A DNA stretch of 64,000 nucleotides from an uncultured Chloroflexia bacterium (GCA_963796715.1 CAWCMN010000009.1:262546-326545), one strand, 5' to 3'; shown: positions 1,164-12,797, numbered from the stretch's first letter. Made by a program: numbers and translations. The notes: generated by a model from the sequence alone, not told the origin.

Positions 1164-1604
1164 ATGCTGAACGCGGTCCGCGGCCTGTTCATCACCGTCC
1201 TGGTCGTGACGATGCTGGCCGGTCTGGTCGGCGCGTTCGTGCCCCAGATCCCCCCCGGATCGGCCGACGGCATCCCCTACGCCATCCTGGTGCCGACCGC
1301 GCTGGTCTCGGGCATCGTCATCGCCAGCCTGACCGTCCTCCTCATCTTCCGCTCGATCCTCACCTCCAGCCAGCGCCACACCAGCTGGGTGAAGAGCCTG
1401 ACCAGCCCCAACGGACGCATCTTCTTCTTCATCCTGTTGCTGCTCTGGACGGGCGGGATGTTCATGCTGCCGACCATCGCCCAGGCGTGGCAGCCGGCCC
1501 TCAACGGCGCCCCGTCCGCGGCAGAGGGCGGCCTGGCGCTGATCGGCCTGCTGGCTGGCGCATTCCTCTTCCTGGGCTTCATCTGGGCCGTCATCGGCGA
1601 GTAG
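1164..1604 (+). CDS. Hypothetical 4-TM membrane protein (146 aa)
   Basis: ATG at 1164 lies inside the longer ORF 945-1604. There are four hydrophobic helices (for example LFITVLVVTMLAGLVGAFV and IFFFILLLLWTGGMFML). No recognisable family. Confidence 0.45.
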   Translation: MLNAVRGLFITVLVVTMLAGLVGAFVPQIPPGSADGIPYAILVPTALVSGIVIASLTVLLIFRSILTSSQRHTSWVKSLTSPNGRIFFFILLLLWTGGMFMLPTIAQAWQPALNGAPSAAEGGLALIGLLAGAFLFLGFIWAVIGE

Positions 1605-1634
1605 CCGACTGCGCCTCAGATCAACGGGGCCGAC

Positions 1635-2516
1635 TCACGCGAACCGCACCACCGCCAGCGCGCCCGCGATGAGGCAATAGGCGGCGAACGGCAGCAGCGT
1701 CCGCGTCGTGAAGTAGCGGCTCAGGAAGCGCACCGACGCATACGCGGCCAGGGCGGCCGCGATGCTGCCGACGAGGATCTGGCCCTGCACCCCGTCGCCG
1801 TTAGGACCGATCAGGTCGGGCAGTTTGTAGGCCCCCGCGGCGAGGATGATCGGCGTGGCCAGCAGGAACGAGAAGCGGGCCGCATCCTCGTGATCGAGGC
1901 CCCGCACGAGCCCGGCGACCATCGTGATGCCCGAACGGCTGATGCCGGCGAAGAGGGCGAGGACCTGGGCGACCCCGATCAGGCCGGCTTCCCGGAACTC
2001 GAGCGTGTCCAGCCGTCGACTCCCGGCCGCCATGGCCCCGTGGGCCCGCGCCACGGTGCGCACGGCTGCCCGGCGACGCACGACCTCCCCGCCCAGGAGC
2101 ATGAGCCCGTTCACGAAGAGGAACCCGGCCGCCGCGAGGGGCACGGCGAACAGGACGCGCAGGAGATGCTCGAAGAGGACCCCGGCCAGGCCGGCCGGGA
2201 TCGTGGCCACGATGAGCAGCCAGCCCAGCCGGGCGTCCGTCGTGGCGATCCGCCTGGTTCGCAGGGAGTCGAGCACGCCGCGCACGATGCGTGCCCAGGT
2301 CGCCCGGTAGAAGACGACCAGCGCCAGGGCCGTCGCCACGTGGAGGCCGACGAGGAACGCCAGGAAGTACGACTCGGAGGCCGACTGGGCGGCCACCACA
2401 TCGGTCCAGCCGAGCAGCTGCGGCACGATGACCGAGTGGCCAAGGCTCGAGATCGGGAAGAGCTCGGTCACGCCCTGCAGCACGCCGAGCACGATCGCCT
2501 GCAGGTAGGTCAGCAC
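1635..2516 (-). CDS. uppP: Undecaprenyl-diphosphatase (UppP/BacA)
   Basis: 293 aa with the BacA signatures VTELFPISSLGH and ISRSGITM and a multi-TM profile. Confidence 0.9.
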   Translation of the reverse strand: MLTYLQAIVLGVLQGVTELFPISSLGHSVIVPQLLGWTDVVAAQSASESYFLAFLVGLHVATALALVVFYRATWARIVRGVLDSLRTRRIATTDARLGWLLIVATIPAGLAGVLFEHLLRVLFAVPLAAAGFLFVNGLMLLGGEVVRRRAAVRTVARAHGAMAAGSRRLDTLEFREAGLIGVAQVLALFAGISRSGITMVAGLVRGLDHEDAARFSFLLATPIILAAGAYKLPDLIGPNGDGVQGQILVGSIAAALAAYASVRFLSRYFTTRTLLPFAAYCLIAGALAVVRFA

Positions 2517-2520
2517 GGGG

Positions 2521-4266
2521 TCACGTCAGGGGCACGACGAAGAGCTCGGTCCCGTCCGCGACCTGGAAGACCAGGAAGGGATCTTGTGCCGAGGCGGGCA
2601 TGGTCACTTCGAACCACCCTTCGAGGGTGTCGTCAACGGGCAGCACCTCGCTGCGCAGCTCGGGCGTGCGCGAGCCGGCCGTGATGGTCGTCTTGCTCGA
2701 ATCGGCCGTGATGACGCTCCATGCCGCAGGCCCGACCGACCATGCCGCGCTCCTGCTCGCATAGCGCACCTCGATGGCGACCCGGGTCGTCGAGGCTGAC
2801 GTGGCCGGGTCGATCGTCAGCACGGTCACCGTGCCAAGGGTCGTGCTGCCGCTCGTCACGGGCGTCGCGGCTCCGACGTCCACGATCGGCGGCAGGTTCG
2901 ACGGCTCTCCACTCGGCACGACCGTGGCCTCCGCCGAACCGGTGGCCAGCGGACTCGGCGCCACGACGACGAGCGGGCGGTCGGTCGGTTGGGCCTGGCG
3001 GGGCGATCCAAGCGGGCCCACAAGCACGGTCGCCAGGCCCGCCACGACCCCGATCACCACCAGGCCCCCGATCAACGTCGGCAGCGGATCCGCCAGGCTC
3101 AGACCAGCGAGCGGGTCGCGATCGAACCGGCGGCGGACGAGCACTGCCGCAACCAGCGTGGTCATCGGTACGGCGGCGACGATGCCGACGCTGCCCACCA
3201 GGGCGCGCACGATCTCGACCGCCAGGGTCTCCCCGTTGAGGACCTGACCGGCCGGCAACTGGCTGACGACGAGGAGCACGAGCAGGGGCAGGCCCGCCCC
3301 GACGTAGGCCAGGAACAGCGTGTTCACGGTGGCCGCGATGTGGGCACGACCGACACGCAGGCCGCGGCCGTACAGCTGGCGGACGCTCGCCCCTCCGTCC
3401 GCCGACAACTCCTCGACGACGACTGCCTGGGTCATCGTGACGTCCTCGAGGATGCCCAGCGAGCCCAGGATGAACGCCGCCAGGAGGAGCCCGCTGAGGT
3501 CCAGGCCGGCGCCCCCGGCGGACGTCTGGATCTGCGCCAGGTCGGCTGCACCGACGGTGGTGAACTGGGCGAAGTGGGTCGCCGCAGCCCCCAACAGGCC
3601 GGTCAGGGCGAGCGCTGCTGCCGTGCCCAGGATGGCCGCGACACTGGCGACCGAGAAGCCCTCGGTCAGGAGGATCGTGAGCAACGTGACGGCCGTCGCG
3701 GCGACGACCGCCAGCGGCACCGGTGGGTAGCCCGCCACGATGAGGGGCAGGACGACCCGCACGATCACGGCGATCGTCAGGCCGAGCGCCAGCAGCGCGC
3801 GCGTGCCTCGCCAGCCGCCCACCAGCACGACGGCGACCGCGAACAGGAGCGTCAGCAAACCCAGCTGGGGCAATCGCCAGTGGTCCGTCACCGCGATGAA
3901 CGGGCCCGCCCCCGGCTGTGGCGTGTACGTCACCACGACCGCGTCGCCCGGGTGGAAGGACGTCAGGTCCTCGGTCCCGCCCGGTCCCTGGAGGTACGCC
4001 GGCACATCGTGGCCCGCGTCGGGGCCTTCGGACATGTGCACCGTGGCGTCCGGGGCGAATCCGCCATCGGGGAGCTGGGTCGGGTTGGCGACGACCGTCA
4101 CTAACGTCCCCTGGTAGGCCGTGACCGTCCCCTGGCCGGCAGGGATCCCTGACAGGTCCGGCAGCGCCAGGACGAGGGTGAGCAGGGCGATCACGAGGGC
4201 GGGAAGGAGGAACGGTCGAGGCTCCAGGCGGTCGATGAACCCCGCCAGGCGTTGGCTGAGGCTCAC
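2521..4266 (-). CDS. YibE/F family membrane protein with a C-terminal extracytoplasmic domain extension of about 200 aa
   Basis: 581 aa. The N-terminal 380 aa are multi-TM and paralogous to the downstream YibE/F (HWRLPQLG, YLGTALPLLVL-type segments). The C-terminus is a Pro/Thr/Ser-rich linker plus a beta-rich domain ending FVVPLT. There is a 5-nt gap to uppP downstream. Confidence 0.8.
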   Translation of the reverse strand: MSLSQRLAGFIDRLEPRPFLLPALVIALLTLVLALPDLSGIPAGQGTVTAYQGTLVTVVANPTQLPDGGFAPDATVHMSEGPDAGHDVPAYLQGPGGTEDLTSFHPGDAVVVTYTPQPGAGPFIAVTDHWRLPQLGLLTLLFAVAVVLVGGWRGTRALLALGLTIAVIVRVVLPLIVAGYPPVPLAVVAATAVTLLTILLTEGFSVASVAAILGTAAALALTGLLGAAATHFAQFTTVGAADLAQIQTSAGGAGLDLSGLLLAAFILGSLGILEDVTMTQAVVVEELSADGGASVRQLYGRGLRVGRAHIAATVNTLFLAYVGAGLPLLVLLVVSQLPAGQVLNGETLAVEIVRALVGSVGIVAAVPMTTLVAAVLVRRRFDRDPLAGLSLADPLPTLIGGLVVIGVVAGLATVLVGPLGSPRQAQPTDRPLVVVAPSPLATGSAEATVVPSGEPSNLPPIVDVGAATPVTSGSTTLGTVTVLTIDPATSASTTRVAIEVRYASRSAAWSVGPAAWSVITADSSKTTITAGSRTPELRSEVLPVDDTLEGWFEVTMPASAQDPFLVFQVADGTELFVVPLT

Positions 4267-4968
4267 GCGTCGAGTTTCCGCGGGTCTGCCCCTGCTAGGC
4301 TTGCGCCTGCCCTGGAGAGGAGGTCACGCACGCGCTCGCGCCGCGCCCCTGACTGGCGCCTGATCGGCCCATCGGTCGGCCTGCTCGTGGCGGTGGCTGT
4401 CCTGCTGGTCCTCTCCCAGCCGCATCGCAGCCCGGCCGCGGCTCCGGGACCGGCCGCCCAGCAAACGGATGCTGCCTTCGCGTCGTCGCCTCCGACCGGC
4501 GACTCGTTGGTGTCCGACACGACCGAGCCCCCGACCACCCTGCTCCCCCCGACCGCCACACCCGGGACAACCTCCGCGACCGTCCCGACGGCCTCGCCGG
4601 TGACGGCATCGCTCGGCGAAGCCGTACGGATCGTCGACGCGGGCAGCTCGCTGGGCACGGTCACGGTCGTGGAGATGGATCCGTTCACCACGGGCCAGAC
4701 CGAACGCGTGGAGATCCGGGTGCGGTACCTCGCGGGCGCGGGCAGCTGGCCGATCGACCCCGCGGCCTGGGGCGGCATGAGCGCCGACGGCAGCACGTTC
4801 ACCGGGTACGCCGGCGGACGCACCCCGGCTCTCCGCGCCACGACGCTCGCGGCCCACGGGTCCCTCGAAGCGTGGTTCGAGATGGACTTCCCGACCGCGG
4901 CGCAGGGCCCGCTGCTGACGTACGCCGCGACCGACGGCACGGTCCTGTTCACGGTGCCGCTTCCCTGA
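4252..4968 (+). CDS. Membrane-anchored secreted protein; standalone paralog of the C-terminal domain of the 2521-4266 product
   Basis: 238 aa with an N-terminal TM (LIGPSVGLLVAVAVLLVL), a Pro/Thr-rich linker and a domain about 45% identical to the fusion's C-terminus (GTVTV..DP..RV.I.VRY..W...PAAW..AD....RTP.LR...LE.WFE..P.AQ.P.L....DGT.LF.VPL). The start is uncertain because it overlaps the divergent gene start. Confidence 0.6.
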   Translation: MAEAHASSFRGSAPARLAPALERRSRTRSRRAPDWRLIGPSVGLLVAVAVLLVLSQPHRSPAAAPGPAAQQTDAAFASSPPTGDSLVSDTTEPPTTLLPPTATPGTTSATVPTASPVTASLGEAVRIVDAGSSLGTVTVVEMDPFTTGQTERVEIRVRYLAGAGSWPIDPAAWGGMSADGSTFTGYAGGRTPALRATTLAAHGSLEAWFEMDFPTAAQGPLLTYAATDGTVLFTVPLP

Positions 4969-6109
4969 GTGCCGGTGCGTGTCGCACCGGCTCATGCCAC
5001 CACGCGGCGATGGCCGTGGTGGCCGGGACGGCGGCCAGGATGCCGATGCTGCCGACCGCGGCCCGCACGATCTCCACGGCCACCAGCTCCTGGTTGACGC
5101 TCAGGCTGAACTGGGCGAGCTGGAGGGACAACAGCACCAGCAGGGGCAGGGCCGTCCCAAGGTAGGCGAACACGAGGGTGTTGACCGTGGCGGCGAGGTG
5201 GGCGACGCCGACATTCATCGCATGGCCGTACAGCTCGCGACGGCTGAGGCCGGGGTCGGCAAGGGCCAGCTCCTGGACCGTGGCGGCCTGCCCGATGGCG
5301 ACGTCGTTGAGCACACCCAGTGCGCCGAAGATGACCGCTGCCAGCAGCAGGCCCGAGAGGTCGATCTTGTCACCCACGATCTGCTGGAGGTAGATGACCG
5401 TCTCGGAGCCCTGGGCCGGCGTGAACTGGGCGAGGCCTGTGACCACCACGGCCAGGAGACCGGTGAGTCCCAGGCCGATCGACGTCCCCAGGATCGCCGC
5501 CAGCGTGGCGCGCGTGAAACCCTGGGTCAGCAGGAACGACACCGCGGTGATGAGGATGCCCAGGCTGATGGCCAGGCCGACCGGCTGCCAGCCCGACAGC
5601 AGCAGCGGGATCAGCACGCGGATCGCCAGCACCAGCGTCAAGGCCAACGACACGAGCGCCCGCAGGCCGCGCCAGCCGGCCACGGCGATCGTGACCAGCG
5701 CGAAGAGGCCGACGAGCCCGCCGATGAGGGGCAGGCGCCAGCGATCGACGACCGAGACCTGGGTCGTCCCGTCGGGCAGGTGATCGATGGCCACGAGCAC
5801 CTGGTCGCCGACGTGGTAGTCGGGGATCTGGAGGGCGCCGCTCGGACCCTCGATGGTGGCCGGCACCGTCTGGCCCGCCTGTGGGCCGTCGAGGAACTTG
5901 ACGGTGCCGGTCGGGCCCTGCGGCCCCGTGGGGGGCACGATCGTGACGATGACGCCGTGTGCCTGGTCGGAGATCAGCCCCACGCCGGCCGGCGGCGTCA
6001 GGTCGGGCAGGAGGACGACGAGGGCCGCCACGAGCAGCACCCCCAGGCCGAACGCGATGACGTGTCGATCGCTCGACGGCCGACCATCGGTCGGGGGTCG
6101 GGCAGCCAT
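4949..6109 (-). CDS. YibE/F family membrane protein
   Basis: ATG at 6109 is preceded by AAGGAGAGGAGG. The product is multi-TM and paralogous to the N-terminal half of 2521-4266 (VVDRWRLPLIGGL, VVTGLAQFT, AATVNTLVFAYLGTALPLLVL). Confidence 0.8.
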   Translation of the reverse strand: MAARPPTDGRPSSDRHVIAFGLGVLLVAALVVLLPDLTPPAGVGLISDQAHGVIVTIVPPTGPQGPTGTVKFLDGPQAGQTVPATIEGPSGALQIPDYHVGDQVLVAIDHLPDGTTQVSVVDRWRLPLIGGLVGLFALVTIAVAGWRGLRALVSLALTLVLAIRVLIPLLLSGWQPVGLAISLGILITAVSFLLTQGFTRATLAAILGTSIGLGLTGLLAVVVTGLAQFTPAQGSETVIYLQQIVGDKIDLSGLLLAAVIFGALGVLNDVAIGQAATVQELALADPGLSRRELYGHAMNVGVAHLAATVNTLVFAYLGTALPLLVLLSLQLAQFSLSVNQELVAVEIVRAAVGSIGILAAVPATTAIAAWWHEPVRHAPALREAAP

Positions 6110-6228
6110 CGAGCCTCCTCTCCTTGGGCCGCGAGAGGGTAGCAGACCGGCCTGCGCCTTGACCACCATATTGAGACTCGGTATCATCTGCGCTTCCCAA
6201 GCCAATTCAGGCTGCACGACTTGGATGG

Positions 6229-7158
6229 ATGAGGAGGAACCACGAGATGAGACGCAGTCTTGGCATGGTCCTGGTCATCGCCGCTCTCGCTGTGACTGCG
6301 GCCTCGTGCGGTGAGGGCACCTCTCCCTCGAGCAGCGGGGGGAGCGGCTCACAGCTGGCGGTCATGGGGACGGAGAACTTCTACGCCGACCTGTTGACGC
6401 AGATCGGGGGTTCGCACGTGCGGGCGACGAGCCTGCTCAACGACCCCAACGCCGACCCCCACGCCTTCGAGACGAGCCCGCAGGACGCGGCGCTGGTGGC
6501 CGACGCGCGGCTCGTGATCGTCAACGGCATCGGCTACGACGACTTCATGCAGCAGCTCCTGGGTGCGGCCCCCGATCCGACGCGGGTCGTGATCAACGTG
6601 CAGCAGCTCCTTGGCGTGGGCGATGATGTCAACGTGCACATCTGGTACGACCCGGGCACGATGCCCAAGGTGGCGCAGGCGGCCGCGGCGGCATTGGGCC
6701 AGCTCGACCCGGCCAACGCGGCCTACTACGATGCCAACGAGCAGGCCTACCTCGCTTCACTGAAGCCGCTGACCGACGAGATCGCCCTGCTCAAAAGCAA
6801 GTACGGCGGCGCGCCGGTCGCGTTCACGGAGCCCGTGGCCGGGTACCTGGCAACCGCCATCGGCCTCCAGGTACTGACCCCCGAGGCCTTCCAGAAGGCG
6901 ATCGAAGAGGGCACCGATCCCGCCCCGGCCGACGTCGCAGCCGAGCAGGACCTCCTGACCGGCAAGAAGGTCAAGGTGCTGCTCTACAACAGCCAGGTCA
7001 CCTCGCCGATCACCCAGCAGGTCCACGACCTCGCCGTCCAGAACGGCATCCCCGTCGTCGGCGTGGCGGAGACGATGCCGCCCGCCTACCAGCACTACGT
7101 GGAGTGGCAGCTGGCCCAGATGCAGGCCCTCCAGGCGGCCCTGGCACAGGGCAGCTGA
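6229..7158 (+). CDS. Metal ABC transporter substrate-binding lipoprotein (TroA/ZnuA cluster A-I family)
   Basis: Lipobox LAVTAASC, a TroA-like fold sequence and operon context with an ATPase and permease. No His-rich loop. Confidence 0.8.
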   Translation: MRRNHEMRRSLGMVLVIAALAVTAASCGEGTSPSSSGGSGSQLAVMGTENFYADLLTQIGGSHVRATSLLNDPNADPHAFETSPQDAALVADARLVIVNGIGYDDFMQQLLGAAPDPTRVVINVQQLLGVGDDVNVHIWYDPGTMPKVAQAAAAALGQLDPANAAYYDANEQAYLASLKPLTDEIALLKSKYGGAPVAFTEPVAGYLATAIGLQVLTPEAFQKAIEEGTDPAPADVAAEQDLLTGKKVKVLLYNSQVTSPITQQVHDLAVQNGIPVVGVAETMPPAYQHYVEWQLAQMQALQAALAQGS

Positions 7159-7162
7159 CGGG

Positions 7163-8011
7163 GTGCCGGACCCGGCCGTCCGCTTCAGTGGGGCGACGCT
7201 CGAGTATCACGGGCGCCGCATCTGGACGGACATGTCGCTGGCCTTCGAAGGCGCCTCCTTCGTGGCCATCCTGGGGCCGAACGGCTCGGGCAAGACGTCG
7301 CTGTTGCGCGTCATCCTGGGCCTCGCGCCGCTGATCGCCGGCCAGGTCCAGGTACTGGGCCATGCCCCGCGGCGTGGTGACCCCGGGATCGGGTACGTGC
7401 CCCAGCACCAGGCGTTCGATCCGGACCTGCCGCTGCGCGGTCGCGACCTCATCCAGCTAGGCCTCGACGGGCACCGGTGGGGCCTCGGACGATCCGGGGC
7501 CGCGTCGCGACGACGCGTCGAGACGACGATCGAAGCCGTGCAGGCCACGGCCTACGCCGATGCGCCGATCGGACGCCTCTCGGGTGGCGAGCAGCAGCGC
7601 CTGCGGATCGCCCAGGCCCTCGTGGGCGACCCCCGGCTGCTCCTATGCGACGAGCCGCTGGCCAGCCTGGACCTTCGCTACCAGCAGGGGATCACCGACC
7701 TGATCGGGGACTGGCAGCGCGGTGGTGACCGCACGGTCCTCTTCGTGACGCACGACGTGAACCCCGTGCTCGAGCTGGTGGACCAGGTCCTGTTCGTCGT
7801 CAACGGCCGTTGGGCGATGGGCACGCCCGACGAGGTCCTGACCTCGGACCGGATGACCGAGCTGTACGGGTCGCATGTGGACGTCCTGCGTGTCCACGGG
7901 CGGATCCTCGTGGTCGGGGAGTCCAGCGGCTCGGGGTTCGAGATGGAGGAGCCGCACCACCTGCCGGCCCTGCCCGACGACGATCGTCATCCGGAGCGGC
8001 CCACCTCGTGA
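7163..8011 (+). CDS. Metal ABC transporter ATP-binding protein
   Basis: Walker A GPNGSGKT, signature LSGGEQQR and Walker B LLLCDEP. Confidence 0.9.
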   Translation: MPDPAVRFSGATLEYHGRRIWTDMSLAFEGASFVAILGPNGSGKTSLLRVILGLAPLIAGQVQVLGHAPRRGDPGIGYVPQHQAFDPDLPLRGRDLIQLGLDGHRWGLGRSGAASRRRVETTIEAVQATAYADAPIGRLSGGEQQRLRIAQALVGDPRLLLCDEPLASLDLRYQQGITDLIGDWQRGGDRTVLFVTHDVNPVLELVDQVLFVVNGRWAMGTPDEVLTSDRMTELYGSHVDVLRVHGRILVVGESSGSGFEMEEPHHLPALPDDDRHPERPTS

Positions 8012-8859
8012 TCGACCAGCTCGTCCACCTGCTGGGCTACGAGTTCGCCCAGAATGCGCTCGCCGCCGGCCTCGTGGTGGGCATCGTCTCGGGCGTGGTC
8101 AGCCGATTCGTGGTGATGCGCAACATGGCCTTCGCGGTCCATGCCCTTTCCGAGCTGGGTTTCACCGGTTCGGCCGGGGCGATCCTCATCGGCGCGTCGC
8201 CCGTCCTGGGCCTGATGGCGGGCACGACGATCACTGCCCTGTTCATCGGCGCCCTTGGGGTGCGCGTGCGAGAGCGGGACTCCGTCGTCGGCATCGCCAT
8301 GGCCTTCGGCCTTGGCCTGGGCGTCCTCTTCCTGTCCCTCTACCCGCGCTTCGCGACGCAGGCCTTCGCGATCCTCTTCGGCTCCATCACCGGCGTGAGC
8401 CGGGGTGACGTGGCGCTCCTCATCGGCATCGGCGTGGTCACCCTCATCGCCCTCGCCGTCATGTACCGGCCCCTGACGTTCGCCACGGTCGACCCCGAGG
8501 TGGCCGAGGCCCGCGGCGTCCCGGTACGGGAGCTGGCCATCGCCTTCCTGCTCATCCTTGCCGCGGCAGTCGCGGAGGCGGTCCAGGTCGTGGGCGTCCT
8601 GCTGATCCTGACCCTGCTCATCACCCCGGGCGCCACCGCCGAGCGGCTTACGGTCAACCCAGCCCGGGCCACCATCTACAGCGTCGCGATCGCCCTCGTC
8701 TCGGTGGAGGGCGGCATCCTTCTGGCGCTGGCGACGAACCTGCCCGTCAGCGTCTACGTGACGAGCCTGAGCTTCGCCGGCTACCTCGCCGCGCGCTTCA
8801 TCGTCGGGCCCATGGCGGTCGGCCGTGCCAGCCGCGGACGTCTCGAGGGCGCATCATGA
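8008..8859 (+). CDS. Metal ABC transporter permease (ZnuB/TroC-like)
   Basis: GTG at 8008 overlaps the ATPase stop (GTGA). Roughly 8 TM helices, the usual length for this family. Confidence 0.85.
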   Translation: MIDQLVHLLGYEFAQNALAAGLVVGIVSGVVSRFVVMRNMAFAVHALSELGFTGSAGAILIGASPVLGLMAGTTITALFIGALGVRVRERDSVVGIAMAFGLGLGVLFLSLYPRFATQAFAILFGSITGVSRGDVALLIGIGVVTLIALAVMYRPLTFATVDPEVAEARGVPVRELAIAFLLILAAAVAEAVQVVGVLLILTLLITPGATAERLTVNPARATIYSVAIALVSVEGGILLALATNLPVSVYVTSLSFAGYLAARFIVGPMAVGRASRGRLEGAS

Positions 8860-9299: not shown

Positions 9300-12200
9300 A
9301 TGCCGACCGTTCCCATGACACCCTCCCAGCGCGGCGGGCCCAACGGGTTGCCGCGATTCCAGCGCCTTGGCCTGTTCATGGCACGCCGGCGCTGGTGGGT
9401 CATCGGCGCCTGGGCCGTCGTGCTCCTGGCGGCCCTGCCGTTCGCGCCGCGGGCCGGCTCGGTCCTGCGCGCGGGTGGCTTCACGCTGCCCGACCTGCCC
9501 TCCGAAGAAGCCCGCGCCACGCTCGCCCAGCTTGGCGTGCCCCCGTCGGTCCTGGCCATCGTCATCGAGTCCACGGGGTCCGCGAGGGCGGGCCAGCCGG
9601 CGTTCGAGGCAGCGGCCGCGGCGGCCGTCGCCGACGTCCCGCACGCGGCGCACGTGACCGGGATCCAGAGCCATCTCGTGTCGCCCCGTCAGGTCAGCAC
9701 CGACGGGACGGTCGTCTACGACATCGTGGACCTTGACCTGTCACCGGACGACTCGCCGGCGGCGATGGCGCCGGTCCAGGCCGCCCTCCACGACGAGCCG
9801 GGCATCCGCACCCTGATCGGCGGCGCGCCCGCCTTCTACGGCGACATCCAGACGGCCTCCGAAGAAGACCTGCGACGGGCCGAGCTGGTGAGCCTGCCGC
9901 TCGCCGCGATCGCCCTCGTCCTGATCTTCGGCGGGATCGTGGCGGCCGGCGTGCCCCTCGTCGTGGGTGGCTCGGCCGTGCTGCTCGCCCTCGCCCTGAT
10001 CTTCCTGCTGGCCAGCGTCACGCCGATGAGCATCTTCGTGCTCAACCTCGCCACCCTGCTCGGGCTCGGCCTGGGGGTCGACTACTCGCTGTTGCTCACG
10101 AGCCGCTTCCGCGAGGAACTCGGCCGAAGGGGCGGCGGCCGGCGCGCCGACGGGTCGATCGACCGCGCGGCGGTGGACGAGGCTGTGGGGGTGACCGTGG
10201 CCACGGCCGGCCGGGCCATCTTCTTCAGCGGCTTCACGGTCCTGCTTGGCCTGGTCGGGCTGGTCCTCTTCGACTTCATGATCCTGCGCTCGGTCGGCGT
10301 GGCCGGGGCGATCGTCGTGGGCATGGCCGTGCTCGCCGCGCTGACCCTGCTGCCGGCCGTGCTGGCCGTCCTGGGGCCGCGGCTGGGGGCGCTCTCGGTG
10401 CGCAGCCTGCTGCGCCGGCCACCGCCGGACCCGGGCGTGCCGCCGCCCGAGAGTCGCTGGGCGCGGCTGGCGCGCTGGGTGATGCAGCGCCCCTGGCGCG
10501 TCTTCGTGCCCACGCTCGGCATCCTCGTCCTGCTGGGCGTGCCGTTCCTGCACGTCCAGTTCGACGCGCCCGACGAGACGATCCTGCCGGCCGACCTCCA
10601 GTCCAGGCAGGCCTACGACGTCCTCTCGACCACGTTCGGGGAGGGGACGTTCGCGCCGCTCGAGCTGGCCGTCCAGGCCACGGGTCCCATCACCGACCCG
10701 GCGATCCTGGGCAAGCTCTACGACTATTCGCGCGAGCTCGCGTCCGATCCGCGGGTGGTGCGGGTGGACGGCCTGGTGGATCTCGACCCCCGCCTGACGC
10801 GAGCCCAGTACGAGCTGCTCTACGCGACGCCGGGCGGGCCGCCCGACCGGTTCGCCGCCGCGGCCCTGGCCGCCACGACCAAGGGTGACCTGACGGTCTT
10901 CACGGTGACCACACCGTATGGGCCCAACGCGGCCCAGGGTCGCGATCTCGTCGCGGCGCTGCGCGATCCGACCTCCGCGCTGGCGCCGCCGGCCGGCCTC
11001 ACGGTCCAGGTCGCGGGAGGCGCGGCCGAGGTGACCGACGTGGTCGCCCGGATGGGCCAGGACTTCCCCCGCACCGCCCTGTTCATCCTCATCACGACCT
11101 ACCTCGTGCTGTTCCTGCTCTTGCGGTCGGTGGTGCTGCCGCTCAAGGCCCTGATCATGAACAGCCTCTCGATCATCGCCAGCTTCGGTGCGCTGGTGTG
11201 GATCTTCCAGGACGGGAACCTGTCGGCGCTGATCGGCTTCCAGCCGCTGGGCTACGTGGAGACGACCCAGCCGGTCATCCTCTTCTGCGTCCTGTTCGGC
11301 CTGTCGATGGACTACGAGGTCTTCCTGCTCAGCCGCATGAAAGAAGCGTTTGACGCAGGCGCCGACAACCGCACGGCGGTCGCACGCGGGCTCGAGCGCA
11401 GCGGCCGGATCGTCACGAGCGCGGCCCTCATCGTGGTCATCGTGGCCGGCTCGTTCGTCTTCTCGCAGGTCGTGCTCATCAAGGCGCTCGGCCTCGGCAT
11501 GGCCGTGGCCGTCGCGCTCGATGCGACCGTGGTGCGGGCCCTGCTGGTACCGGCCACGATGCGCCTGCTTGGCGACTGGAATTGGTGGATGCCGGCCCGC
11601 CTCGCCCGCTGGATCGCGGCCAGGCTGCCGGTCGTCGAAGGGGCGACCCTGGTCCAGGCCGTCGTCGTGGCGATTCTCGCCGCGTTCGTGCTGGGGGCGT
11701 GCTCGGCGAACGGGGCCCTGCTGGCGAATGCGCCAGCGGCGCACCCCCTGGTGGCGCGGCCAAGTGCCAGTCCGGTGGCCGCACCCGACCCGCAGCCGCT
11801 GGTCTTCCCGCGCGACGACGGGCCGCACGACCGCCTCACGGAGTGGTGGTACTACACCGGCCACCTGCGGACCGCGAGCGGCGCCACGTACGGGTTCGAG
11901 GACGTCATCTTCCGCGCCGAACGGGGCGCATTCCCGGTGACGTGGGCCTCGCACGTGGCCGTCACCGATGAGCAGGGCCATCGCTTCCTGTACGACCAGC
12001 GTTCGGAGGTGGGCCCGCAGGTGGACGCGGCGCAGTCCGTGTCCAGCGGCCCATACGGCTTCTTCCTGGCCATCTCCGGGACACCGGCTGCGCCCGGGGT
12101 GGCCGCCGCCGATCCTTGGGTGATGCGTGGCTACCTGGGCCACGATGCCCTGGCCGTGTCGTCTGCGACGGGCGGCTTCGCCTTCCAGCTGACGCTCGAC

Positions 12201-12797
12201 GCGGGCGGGCGGCCGCCGGTCCTGCACGACACGAGCGGGTACGTGCCGTTCGGCGCCGCCGGCGGCTCGTACTACTACTCCCGCCCGACCATGCAGGCGG
12301 CCGGCACCCTCACCATCGGCGGCCAGACCATGGCCGTGACGGGGGAGGCGTGGTTCGACCACCAGTGGGGCGACTTCGTGACCGTCGGCGGCGGCGGTTG
12401 GGACTGGTTCGCGGTCAACCTGCCCGACGGCTCGGCCGTCACGCTGTCGCTGATCCGCGACGCCGACGGGACGTACCCGCTCGCGTACGGCACGTATGTC
12501 ACGAGCGACGGCACGATCGTGCACCTCGCGGCGAGCGACTTCACGGTCACCGTGACCGACCACTGGACCAGCCCCCAGACCGGCGCCGTCTACCCATCGG
12601 GCTGGCGCGTCGAGATACCGAAGGCAGGCCTCGTCATCACCCTCCGGCCGACCGTGGCCGACCAGGAGCTGGACACGCGCAGCACGACCGGCGTCATCTA
12701 CTGGGAGGGTTCGCAGGTGGTGACCGCTACGCGCGACGGCGCGCAGATCGCCGCCGACGCCTATGTGGAGCTGACGGGCTACGCCACGGGGCGCTGA
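9300..12797 (+). CDS. MMPL family (RND superfamily) transporter fused to a C-terminal AttH/CrtC-like lipocalin domain
   Basis: 1165 aa. Residues 1-770 have MmpL topology with two 6-TM bundles (GLGVDYSLLL and GLSMDYEVFLLSRM). A 13th hydrophobic segment VVVAILAAFVLGACSANG carries an LGAC lipobox. The C-terminal 370 aa carry FPRDDGPHDRLTEWWYYTGHL and WFDHQWGDF...WDWFAVNLPDGS, which are AttH/CrtC and lipocalin_9-like hallmarks. Confidence 0.85.
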   Translation: MPTVPMTPSQRGGPNGLPRFQRLGLFMARRRWWVIGAWAVVLLAALPFAPRAGSVLRAGGFTLPDLPSEEARATLAQLGVPPSVLAIVIESTGSARAGQPAFEAAAAAAVADVPHAAHVTGIQSHLVSPRQVSTDGTVVYDIVDLDLSPDDSPAAMAPVQAALHDEPGIRTLIGGAPAFYGDIQTASEEDLRRAELVSLPLAAIALVLIFGGIVAAGVPLVVGGSAVLLALALIFLLASVTPMSIFVLNLATLLGLGLGVDYSLLLTSRFREELGRRGGGRRADGSIDRAAVDEAVGVTVATAGRAIFFSGFTVLLGLVGLVLFDFMILRSVGVAGAIVVGMAVLAALTLLPAVLAVLGPRLGALSVRSLLRRPPPDPGVPPPESRWARLARWVMQRPWRVFVPTLGILVLLGVPFLHVQFDAPDETILPADLQSRQAYDVLSTTFGEGTFAPLELAVQATGPITDPAILGKLYDYSRELASDPRVVRVDGLVDLDPRLTRAQYELLYATPGGPPDRFAAAALAATTKGDLTVFTVTTPYGPNAAQGRDLVAALRDPTSALAPPAGLTVQVAGGAAEVTDVVARMGQDFPRTALFILITTYLVLFLLLRSVVLPLKALIMNSLSIIASFGALVWIFQDGNLSALIGFQPLGYVETTQPVILFCVLFGLSMDYEVFLLSRMKEAFDAGADNRTAVARGLERSGRIVTSAALIVVIVAGSFVFSQVVLIKALGLGMAVAVALDATVVRALLVPATMRLLGDWNWWMPARLARWIAARLPVVEGATLVQAVVVAILAAFVLGACSANGALLANAPAAHPLVARPSASPVAAPDPQPLVFPRDDGPHDRLTEWWYYTGHLRTASGATYGFEDVIFRAERGAFPVTWASHVAVTDEQGHRFLYDQRSEVGPQVDAAQSVSSGPYGFFLAISGTPAAPGVAAADPWVMRGYLGHDALAVSSATGGFAFQLTLDAGGRPPVLHDTSGYVPFGAAGGSYYYSRPTMQAAGTLTIGGQTMAVTGEAWFDHQWGDFVTVGGGGWDWFAVNLPDGSAVTLSLIRDADGTYPLAYGTYVTSDGTIVHLAASDFTVTVTDHWTSPQTGAVYPSGWRVEIPKAGLVITLRPTVADQELDTRSTTGVIYWEGSQVVTATRDGAQIAADAYVELTGYATGR

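Follow-up and report, generated by a model that had tools for sequence, protein, structure and literature searches.

The window analysed in this study is a 64,000-nucleotide (nt) stretch of DNA from an uncultured Chloroflexia bacterium (GCA_963796715.1, CAWCMN010000009.1:262546-326545), and the element in question is a locus with two genes of the YibE/F membrane protein family, yibE/F-1 and yibE/F-2, beside a divergently transcribed metal importer of the znuABC type. We regard it as an even call that this region is a metal-starvation island, probably for zinc, with YibE/F as a candidate metal permease. More tentatively, YibE/F may be an unrecognised family of metal-regulated divalent-metal transporters, probably for zinc, in bacteria of the Gram-positive type; in Actinomycetota it would be controlled by Zur, and in Chloroflexota by a Fur-family regulator acting through an undescribed operator, TGAGACTnAGTCTCA, with a DUF4352 beta-sandwich recruited in the Chloroflexota branch as an outward-facing accessory that could also act as a separate subunit. 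Four independent lines point to metal homeostasis, namely the genes that surround yibE/F in two phyla, the canonical Zur boxes of Actinomycetota, the recurrent palindrome of Chloroflexota and His-rich protein tails. The family is widespread and also present in pathogens. The only YibE/F phenotype that we found is a loss of fitness in human blood in Staphylococcus aureus (PMC13227979), where the pair is needed. Neither a published function of YibE/F nor a link to Fur/Zur or ZnuABC was found in the literature on the family. The more valuable outcome is a testable lead that places YibE/F within Fur/Zur-controlled metal homeostasis, and its function is now open to simple tests of metal-dependent expression, growth under chelation and metal uptake.

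Both window proteins lie far above the gathering score of the YibE/F family (PF07907; TCDB 9.B.141). YibE/F-1 (2521-4266, minus strand; 581 amino acids, aa) matched PF07907 at 206.8 bits against a cutoff of 27.2 over aa 137-374, and YibE/F-2 (4949-6109, minus strand; 386 aa) at 216.1 bits. All 71 aligned homologues belonged to the same family, and no Pfam or NCBIfam model other than PF07907 matched YibE/F. The two window proteins share 47% identity over 341 aa (E = 2e-78), in agreement with the sequence-only reading of this DNA, which had described two paralogous YibE/F proteins flanking a small gene. A side-by-side paralogue pair is also found in Lactococcus lactis (YibE/YibF) and S. aureus (SAUSA300_0442/0443); what sets the window apart from these pairs is that one paralogue, YibE/F-1, continues into an additional helix and a beta-sandwich facing outward. 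The longest open reading frame of yibE/F-2 extends to 6217; a ribosome-binding site, GGAGAGGAGG, precedes the ATG at 6109 from which the 386 aa are counted, and the orthologues are 386-392 aa long. The earlier reading had taken Actinobacteria as the relevant taxon. As judged by source names and genome hits, the lineage belongs to Chloroflexota, among Limnocylindria-like metagenome-assembled genomes (MAGs).

The importer genes (6247-8859, plus strand) are divergent from yibE/F-2. They encode a ZnuA-family metal-binding lipoprotein with the lipobox AASC (6247-7158; Pfam ZnuA, 164 bits), a metal ATP-binding cassette (ABC) transporter ATPase (7163-8011) and an ABC-3 family metal permease (8008-8859). 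The component set of binding protein, ATPase and permease, of the cluster A-I / ABC-3 type, is thus complete, and the orthologues carry ABC_tran and, in the permease, ABC-3. The best NCBIfam models were AztC (74.6 bits, cutoff 350), AztA (141.9 bits, cutoff 220) and AztB (130.5 bits, cutoff 280), respectively. The window resembles the znuABC-zur and aztABCD systems in having all three ABC components, with best scores against Azt, and in having relatives with a Fur-family gene and Zur boxes; unlike those systems, it has neither a regulator gene nor an AztD-like chaperone.

Gene neighbourhoods were compared in about 170 related loci, with 80 loci from reference genomes (Chloroflexota, Actinomycetota) and 80 from metagenomes, and genes within 8 kb were counted as neighbours. 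A Fur-family gene was found near YibE/F in 15 of the 80 genome loci and 9 of the 80 metagenome loci, and ZnuA in 12 and 11, respectively; the metagenome contigs are short. Among metagenome loci with the fused beta-sandwich, 8 of 18 had a Fur-family or ZnuA gene. Several gene orders were observed: fur divergent from yibE/F (L084, L093, L094, L100, L101), a tandem fur-znuA-yibE/F (L095, L127), a tandem yibE/F-fur-znuACB (L002), and the order znuABC / yibE/F-2 yibE/F-1 of the window, which recurs in L082, L085, L091 and L092. The locus of P0066 has the order fur / yibE/F-yibE/F(fused)-znuA and lies beside SCO1 and PCuAC genes. Genes for CopC/CopD and cytochrome c were observed beside fused or related YibE/F in L084 (7771-10853), L086 (7818-10246) and L087 (2219-4089), and also in L127 (489-3335) and in L110 and L131 (9302-10720). 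The CopC/CopD, SCO1 and PCuAC neighbours suggest a wider link to envelope metal handling, copper included.

A sigma-70-like znuA promoter, TTGACC-17-TATCAT (6159-6187, plus strand), was located by promoter search in the region shared divergently with yibE/F-2. It was the only promoter-like site in positions 1400-6400, where 0.1 such sites are expected by chance, and it is conserved in L085 and L082. Between its -35 and -10 hexamers sits a 7-1-7 palindrome, TGAGACTCGGTATCA (6172-6186), which has two mismatches to TGAGACTnAGTCTCA; its orthologous counterparts in L082 and L085 differ from TGAGACTnAGTCTCA at a single position. When the two intergenic regions were searched for inverted repeats (seed 6), nothing was found, and the site at 6172-6186 was recognised only through cross-locus comparison. 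In 1.84 Mb of loci, TGAGACTnAGTCTCA occurred at 1, 10 and 16 sites with 0, 1 and 2 mismatches, against 0, 0 and 1.2 in shuffled sequences. The resulting 27 sites, compared with about 1.2 after shuffling, were mostly beside the starts of fur, znuA and yibE/F; such sites were recorded in L100 (3288), L084 (5940), L094 (774), L093 (2299, 2325), L002 (9771, 10298), L095 (2071, 2575, 2587), L127 (4248, 4792), L082 (4697) and L085 (4119). On this distribution, TGAGACTnAGTCTCA is a candidate operator of a Fur-family regulator in Chloroflexota, and we know of no description of this palindrome. The sequence TGAGACTGAGTCTCA is a candidate target of a Limnocylindria Fur-family protein, as is the window site. 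A second, weaker match in the window, TGAGACGCAGTCTTG (6248-6262, three mismatches), begins at the second base of the start codon of znuA, with the first site 76 nt upstream of it; chance may account for this match, as about one of the kind is expected in the window.

The actinobacterial Zur box is TGAnAAnnnTTnTCA (PMC5472717). It was found in 10 loci, where about 0.04 sites are expected by chance over all loci according to a base-composition estimate. Six loci, five of Kribbella and one of 'Streptomyces sp.' SID13031, have the box between znuA and yibE/F in a tiny divergent region; in L036, which was read base by base, it lies 15-55 nt upstream of the yibE/F ATG. In about 20 YibE/F proteins of actinobacteria, histidine runs of the form (GH)n precede the first helix or are found at the C-terminus; the YibE/F proteins of the window have no such run. 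His-rich runs were seen at the N-terminus in L032, L033, L035, L036, L039, L046, L047, L051, L066, L068, L073, L074, L079 and L081 and at the C-terminus in L014, L015 and L048; an example from Kribbella is PQGHGHGHGHGHGDH.

A full-length AlphaFold2 (AF2) model of YibE/F-1, with a predicted local distance difference test score (pLDDT) of 77, shows nine helices, with a beta domain near the N-terminus and a beta-sandwich at the C-terminus, both predicted to face outward. The N-terminal beta-rich ectodomain (aa 36-130; 3877-4161, minus strand) lies between transmembrane helices 1 and 2. Its strands were modelled at aa 49-129 with a pLDDT of about 90, and its conserved residues are G81, P82, G94-G97 and D128-W130-R131. 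The YibE_F core (aa 137-374; 3145-3858, minus strand) has seven helices, and in the 71-sequence alignment E202, D275, T279, Q280, H309, N315, T316, E346, E351 and R354 are its invariant polar residues. Such residues in a membrane core would suit ion handling. After the core come the ninth transmembrane helix (aa 394-420; 3007-3087, minus strand), a low-complexity Pro/Ser/Thr/Ala linker (aa 421-455; 2902-3006, minus strand) with a pLDDT below 50 over aa 416-456, and the fused beta-sandwich (aa 456-581; 2524-2901, minus strand) with a pLDDT above 90. The ratio of nonsynonymous to synonymous substitution rates (dN/dS) between the window and L085 was 0.34 in the linker and 0.07 in the core. Arg-rich segments are found at the N-terminus, in the loops at 153-156 and 296-307 (after helices 2 and 6) and at 378-384 (RRRFDRD, after helix 8), and the remaining loops, as read from the sequence, have no positive charge. 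From the positive-inside rule we infer that the N-terminal beta domain, the linker and the sandwich face outward, the latter two because the extra ninth helix returns the chain across the membrane. This helix follows the cytoplasmic RRRFDRD loop, and the hydrophobic stretch is kept in the fused homologues; it is lacking in the 386-aa homologues and in YibE/F-2, which stops right after helix 8.

In the proposed mechanism, YibE/F-1 and YibE/F-2 would form a hetero-oligomeric membrane permease that is co-repressed with the ABC importer; its substrate would be a divalent metal, with zinc the likeliest. Within the membrane, a ring of invariant Asp, Glu, His, Asn, Thr and Gln residues would handle the metal, most simply in uptake under scarcity, the ninth helix of YibE/F-1 would display the sandwich outside on its flexible linker, and the product of the small gene might, speculatively, supply YibE/F-2 with the module that it lacks. 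Zinc is favoured by the ABC components, whose best scores are against AztABC, by the canonical Zur boxes at the actinobacterial sites and by the His-rich tails. Copper uptake by CopC-CopD, or by YcnJ with YcnI, likewise involves a polytopic permease, an outward beta-sandwich that is either fused or a separate membrane-anchored protein, and a metal-responsive regulator. The arrangement in the window is alike, but it involves unrelated families; the copper ligands of CopC and YcnI are defined, and the window sandwich has no conserved ligand residues.

Several observations weigh against a zinc-regulated YibE/F permease. All ABC components scored below the zinc-specific cutoffs. No Fur-family gene and no site of the canonical Zur box TGAnAAnnnTTnTCA were found in the 64-kb window, and typing of the Fur-family regulators gave no assignment to Zur, Fur or PerR. 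The window palindrome, with its two mismatches, is not significant within the window alone, and TGAGACTnAGTCTCA was defined partly from loci where it was later counted, many of its sites lying in loci outside the motif-defining set. About three quarters of the YibE/F loci had no metal gene within 8 kb, and some fused loci adjoin CopC/CopD and cytochrome c genes, so another metal is possible. No structural relative of the membrane core was found by full-length Foldseek comparison or by a profile search of Protein Data Bank (PDB) sequences. Literature searches for YibE/F returned tables and lists only, and among them no experiment on transport or metal binding.

The small gene between the yibE/F genes (4252-4968, plus strand), recognised by its domain similarity to YibE/F-1 and called here the free copy, encodes a protein whose C-terminus aligned with that of YibE/F-1 without gaps at 44% identity over 126 aa (E = 3e-33). 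By this alignment the similarity is far beyond chance, and the shared C-terminal domain noticed in the sequence-only reading was borne out. The Pro/Thr linker had been said to align as well; the segment in question, 'IVD...LGTVTV', is the first beta-strand pair of the domain and not linker, it aligns ungapped, and the gapped IVD-to-IVD match was in the wrong register. No Pfam or NCBIfam model matched the domain. In particular, neither window copy matched PF11611 (DUF4352; gathering score 25.9 bits) at E<=0.1, and 15 of the 71 fused homologues gave sub-threshold DUF4352 matches, the best with E = 0.002. Word-indexed protein searches with the domain alone returned close relatives only and missed the window's own fused protein, so an exhaustive profile search was used. 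It found 37 proteins, among which P0145, P0150, P0151 and P0158 score 28-35 bits on PF11611; several profile matches thus pass the PF11611 threshold and provide a transitive link from the domain to DUF4352.

The AF2 model of the free domain (pLDDT 92.9) is an all-beta sandwich. Foldseek matched it to YjhA (3cfu) and YcdA (4r4g) of Bacillus subtilis, MPT63 of Mycobacterium tuberculosis (1lmi) and a model of YxkC with template modelling scores (TM-scores) of 0.61-0.66 and a probability of 1.0, those for 3cfu, 1lmi and 4r4g being 0.64-0.66; YjhA and MPT63 were also the Foldseek matches of the fused sandwich. The best viral structural neighbours were phage proteins named DUF4352 (TM-score 0.69-0.70). 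The shared domain is a divergent beta-sandwich of the DUF4352/MPT63 type, a known fold group. The earlier proposal of a new module was right in that the module is genuine, extracytoplasmic and recurrent as a fusion, and wrong in that the domain is not new; this divergent DUF4352 domain has now been given a context. The DUF4352/MPT63 proteins (YjhA, YcdA, YxkC, MPT63 and Mpr of Mycobacterium smegmatis) have the same sandwich fold, with TM-scores of 0.61-0.70, and like the window copies they are held outside the membrane by an anchor, either a helix or a lipid, plus a low-complexity linker. Unlike them, the window copies are below the Pfam threshold and are attached to, or beside, a polytopic YibE/F protein, and unlike Mpr, the window has no nuclease or nucleotide-hydrolysis context.

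In the 71-sequence alignment W516 was the only invariant residue of the sandwich, and no His, Cys or Met was conserved. The sandwich was considered as a metal-binding site and rejected, only a tryptophan being invariant. It lacks conserved metal ligands and is therefore, judged by its residues, more likely to be a module for scaffolding, oligomerisation or envelope contact than a metal site. A scaffold or oligomerisation role is plausible, as it has been reported for the DUF4352 domain of Mpr (PMC12596739). Comparison with the window (2524-2901) showed a much faster divergence of the fused sandwich than of the core, with core and domain identities of 98% vs 72% in P0018, 94% vs 60% in P0021, 90% vs 61% in P0026 and 82% vs 51% in P0028; either relaxed constraint or diversifying selection may lie behind this. 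Against L082, dN/dS was 0.43 in the domain and 0.15 in the core; between the window and L085 it was 0.11 in the free domain and 0.19 in the fused domain. By the latter two ratios, both copies of the domain are under purifying selection.

The spread of the fusion was surveyed in the 120 best YibE/F homologues (53-98% identity), 108 of which are 552-656 aa long. The domain profile matched the C-terminus of 91 of the 108 long homologues and none of the 12 short ones. The clade with the fused domain consists of Chloroflexota, as MAGs of Candidatus Limnocylindrales or 'Chloroflexia', a phylum in which the fused form of YibE/F is common. P0022, which is 93% identical to YibE/F-1, is labelled 'Candidatus Sulfotelmatobacter sp.' (Acidobacteriota) at NCBI; all other relatives are Chloroflexota, and P0022 is probably a mis-binned contig.

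The start of the free copy is ambiguous. From the TTG at 4252 it is a protein of 238 aa with an Arg-rich N-terminus, one helix (aa 38-55; 4363-4416, plus strand), a Pro/Thr linker and the sandwich (119 C-terminal residues; 4609-4965, plus strand), the latter assigned by similarity to the fused copy and by AF2. From the GTG at 4387, which is used in public gene calls, it has 193 aa, and the helix is cut. The membrane-anchored protein of 238 aa described in the earlier reading corresponds to the TTG form, which alone contains the complete helix, and its start is uncertain. In the long form the sandwich would face outward like the fused one. The upstream frame is open and Arg-rich in the window (4252-4416) and in L085 (5800-6045), with an in-frame indel; CTG 4360 of the window is ATG in relatives, and the gene in its long form would share 15 nt with the start of yibE/F-1. 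The free copy was represented by 16 protein clusters (77-100% identity) and was found only in loci with a YibE/F-1 core identity of at least 93% (L001, L085, L090, L092). L091 (core 89%) and L082 (82%) lack it, and the gap between their yibE/F genes is about 98 and 38 nt, respectively. A neighbour-joining tree placed the free copies within the fused domains of the closest relatives. The free copy is taken as a real gene because of its low dN/dS (0.11) and the GC content of 0.90 at third codon positions (GC3) in its frame, and it is a selected, recent and lineage-specific duplicate of the 'helix + linker + sandwich' unit. It is not the recurring partner that had been proposed, being confined to one clade and nested within the fused one. 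P0138, P0147 and P0149 were considered as further free copies and rejected as fragments of fused proteins on short contigs. At the DNA level the free copy no longer resembles the fused one, and no similarity is left where the insertion joins its flanks.

It is also conceivable, though unlikely, that YibE/F is co-regulated with metal genes without being an importer, and that it exports metal to load extracytoplasmic enzymes, exports a metallophore or remodels the envelope, the sandwich binding to another protein or to the wall. Linkage and operators provide the same evidence for this explanation as for uptake; Zur can also activate an exporter gene (PMC5472717). The absence of conserved His, Cys and Met from the sandwich, with W516 alone invariant, would fit such a role, as would the envelope-metallation genes (CopC/CopD, SCO1, PCuAC) that adjoin fused loci. 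On the other hand, the operator-like sites lie within or beside uptake-gene promoters, where a repressor usually binds, and the (GH)n tails are cytoplasmic. Tails of this kind typically belong to proteins that deal with the metal ion directly. Still less probable is a surface module for defence or exclusion against phages or competitors, with YibE/F as a mere membrane anchor. The phage DUF4352 proteins and phage lipoproteins among the best viral structural matches agree with this idea, as do the oligomerisation of the anti-phage protein Mpr, which is driven by its DUF4352 domain (PMC12596739), and the fast evolution of the sandwich relative to the core (P0018, P0028, and the dN/dS values against L082). 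However, dN/dS is below 1 and only 0.11-0.19 between close relatives, the neighbours are metal genes and no defence genes are nearby, and YibE/F, to which the sandwich is fused, is polytopic and highly conserved and has invariant polar residues, unlike a mere anchor.

The least probable explanation, to which we give very little credence, is that YibE/F and UppP form one operon for undecaprenyl-phosphate recycling or another envelope-building step. The uppP/bacA gene (1635-2516, minus strand) encodes an undecaprenyl-diphosphate phosphatase of 293 aa, which passed the equivalog test of NCBIfam NF001395 (414.9 bits, cutoff 394) and matched Pfam BacA at 229 bits. It lies 3' of yibE/F-1 on the same strand, so that the adjacency described in the sequence-only reading is real; the gap is 4 nt (2517-2520) and not 5 nt. 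In the window, in L085 and in L090, uppP begins 4 nt after yibE/F-1 in the same orientation and is probably co-transcribed with it, and a model exists of the DUF4352 protein YxkC of B. subtilis bound to DacA, a cell-wall enzyme (PDB 9a4z). Against an operon of this function, uppP was near YibE/F in none of the 80 reference-genome loci and in 1 of the 80 metagenome loci (L090, a near-identical relative), and the six fused loci examined at greater distance all lacked it. In L082 it is adjacent and inverted, on the opposite strand and convergent; in L091 it is missing, with the flanking genes for a 146-aa membrane protein and a methyltransferase retained and the synteny otherwise intact. The tie to lipid-carrier recycling had been made to depend on conservation of this linkage in related genomes; the linkage is not conserved, and the tie is therefore refuted on its own terms. 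The uppP gene is a neighbour by local synteny only, a local accident, and recognising it as such keeps a wrong annotation from spreading.

In L085, a 97%-identical relative, uppP is split into two called genes of 150 and 142 aa (7751-8634), probably owing to a frameshift or an assembly error. The 146-aa membrane protein, which is conserved and has no family match, adjoins uppP in the window (1164-1604, plus strand); in L091 its gene (3510-3950, minus strand) abuts yibE/F-1 at the place where uppP is missing. An Rfam scan of the window found no RNA family. Beyond the metal ABC genes lie OsmC and, directly after it, a large MMPL/RND transporter of 1165 aa with a C-terminal AttH-like domain (9300-12797, plus strand), whose Pfam families were taken from the L082 orthologue. 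The order of OsmC and MMPL/RND downstream of the metal ABC genes is kept in L082 and L085.

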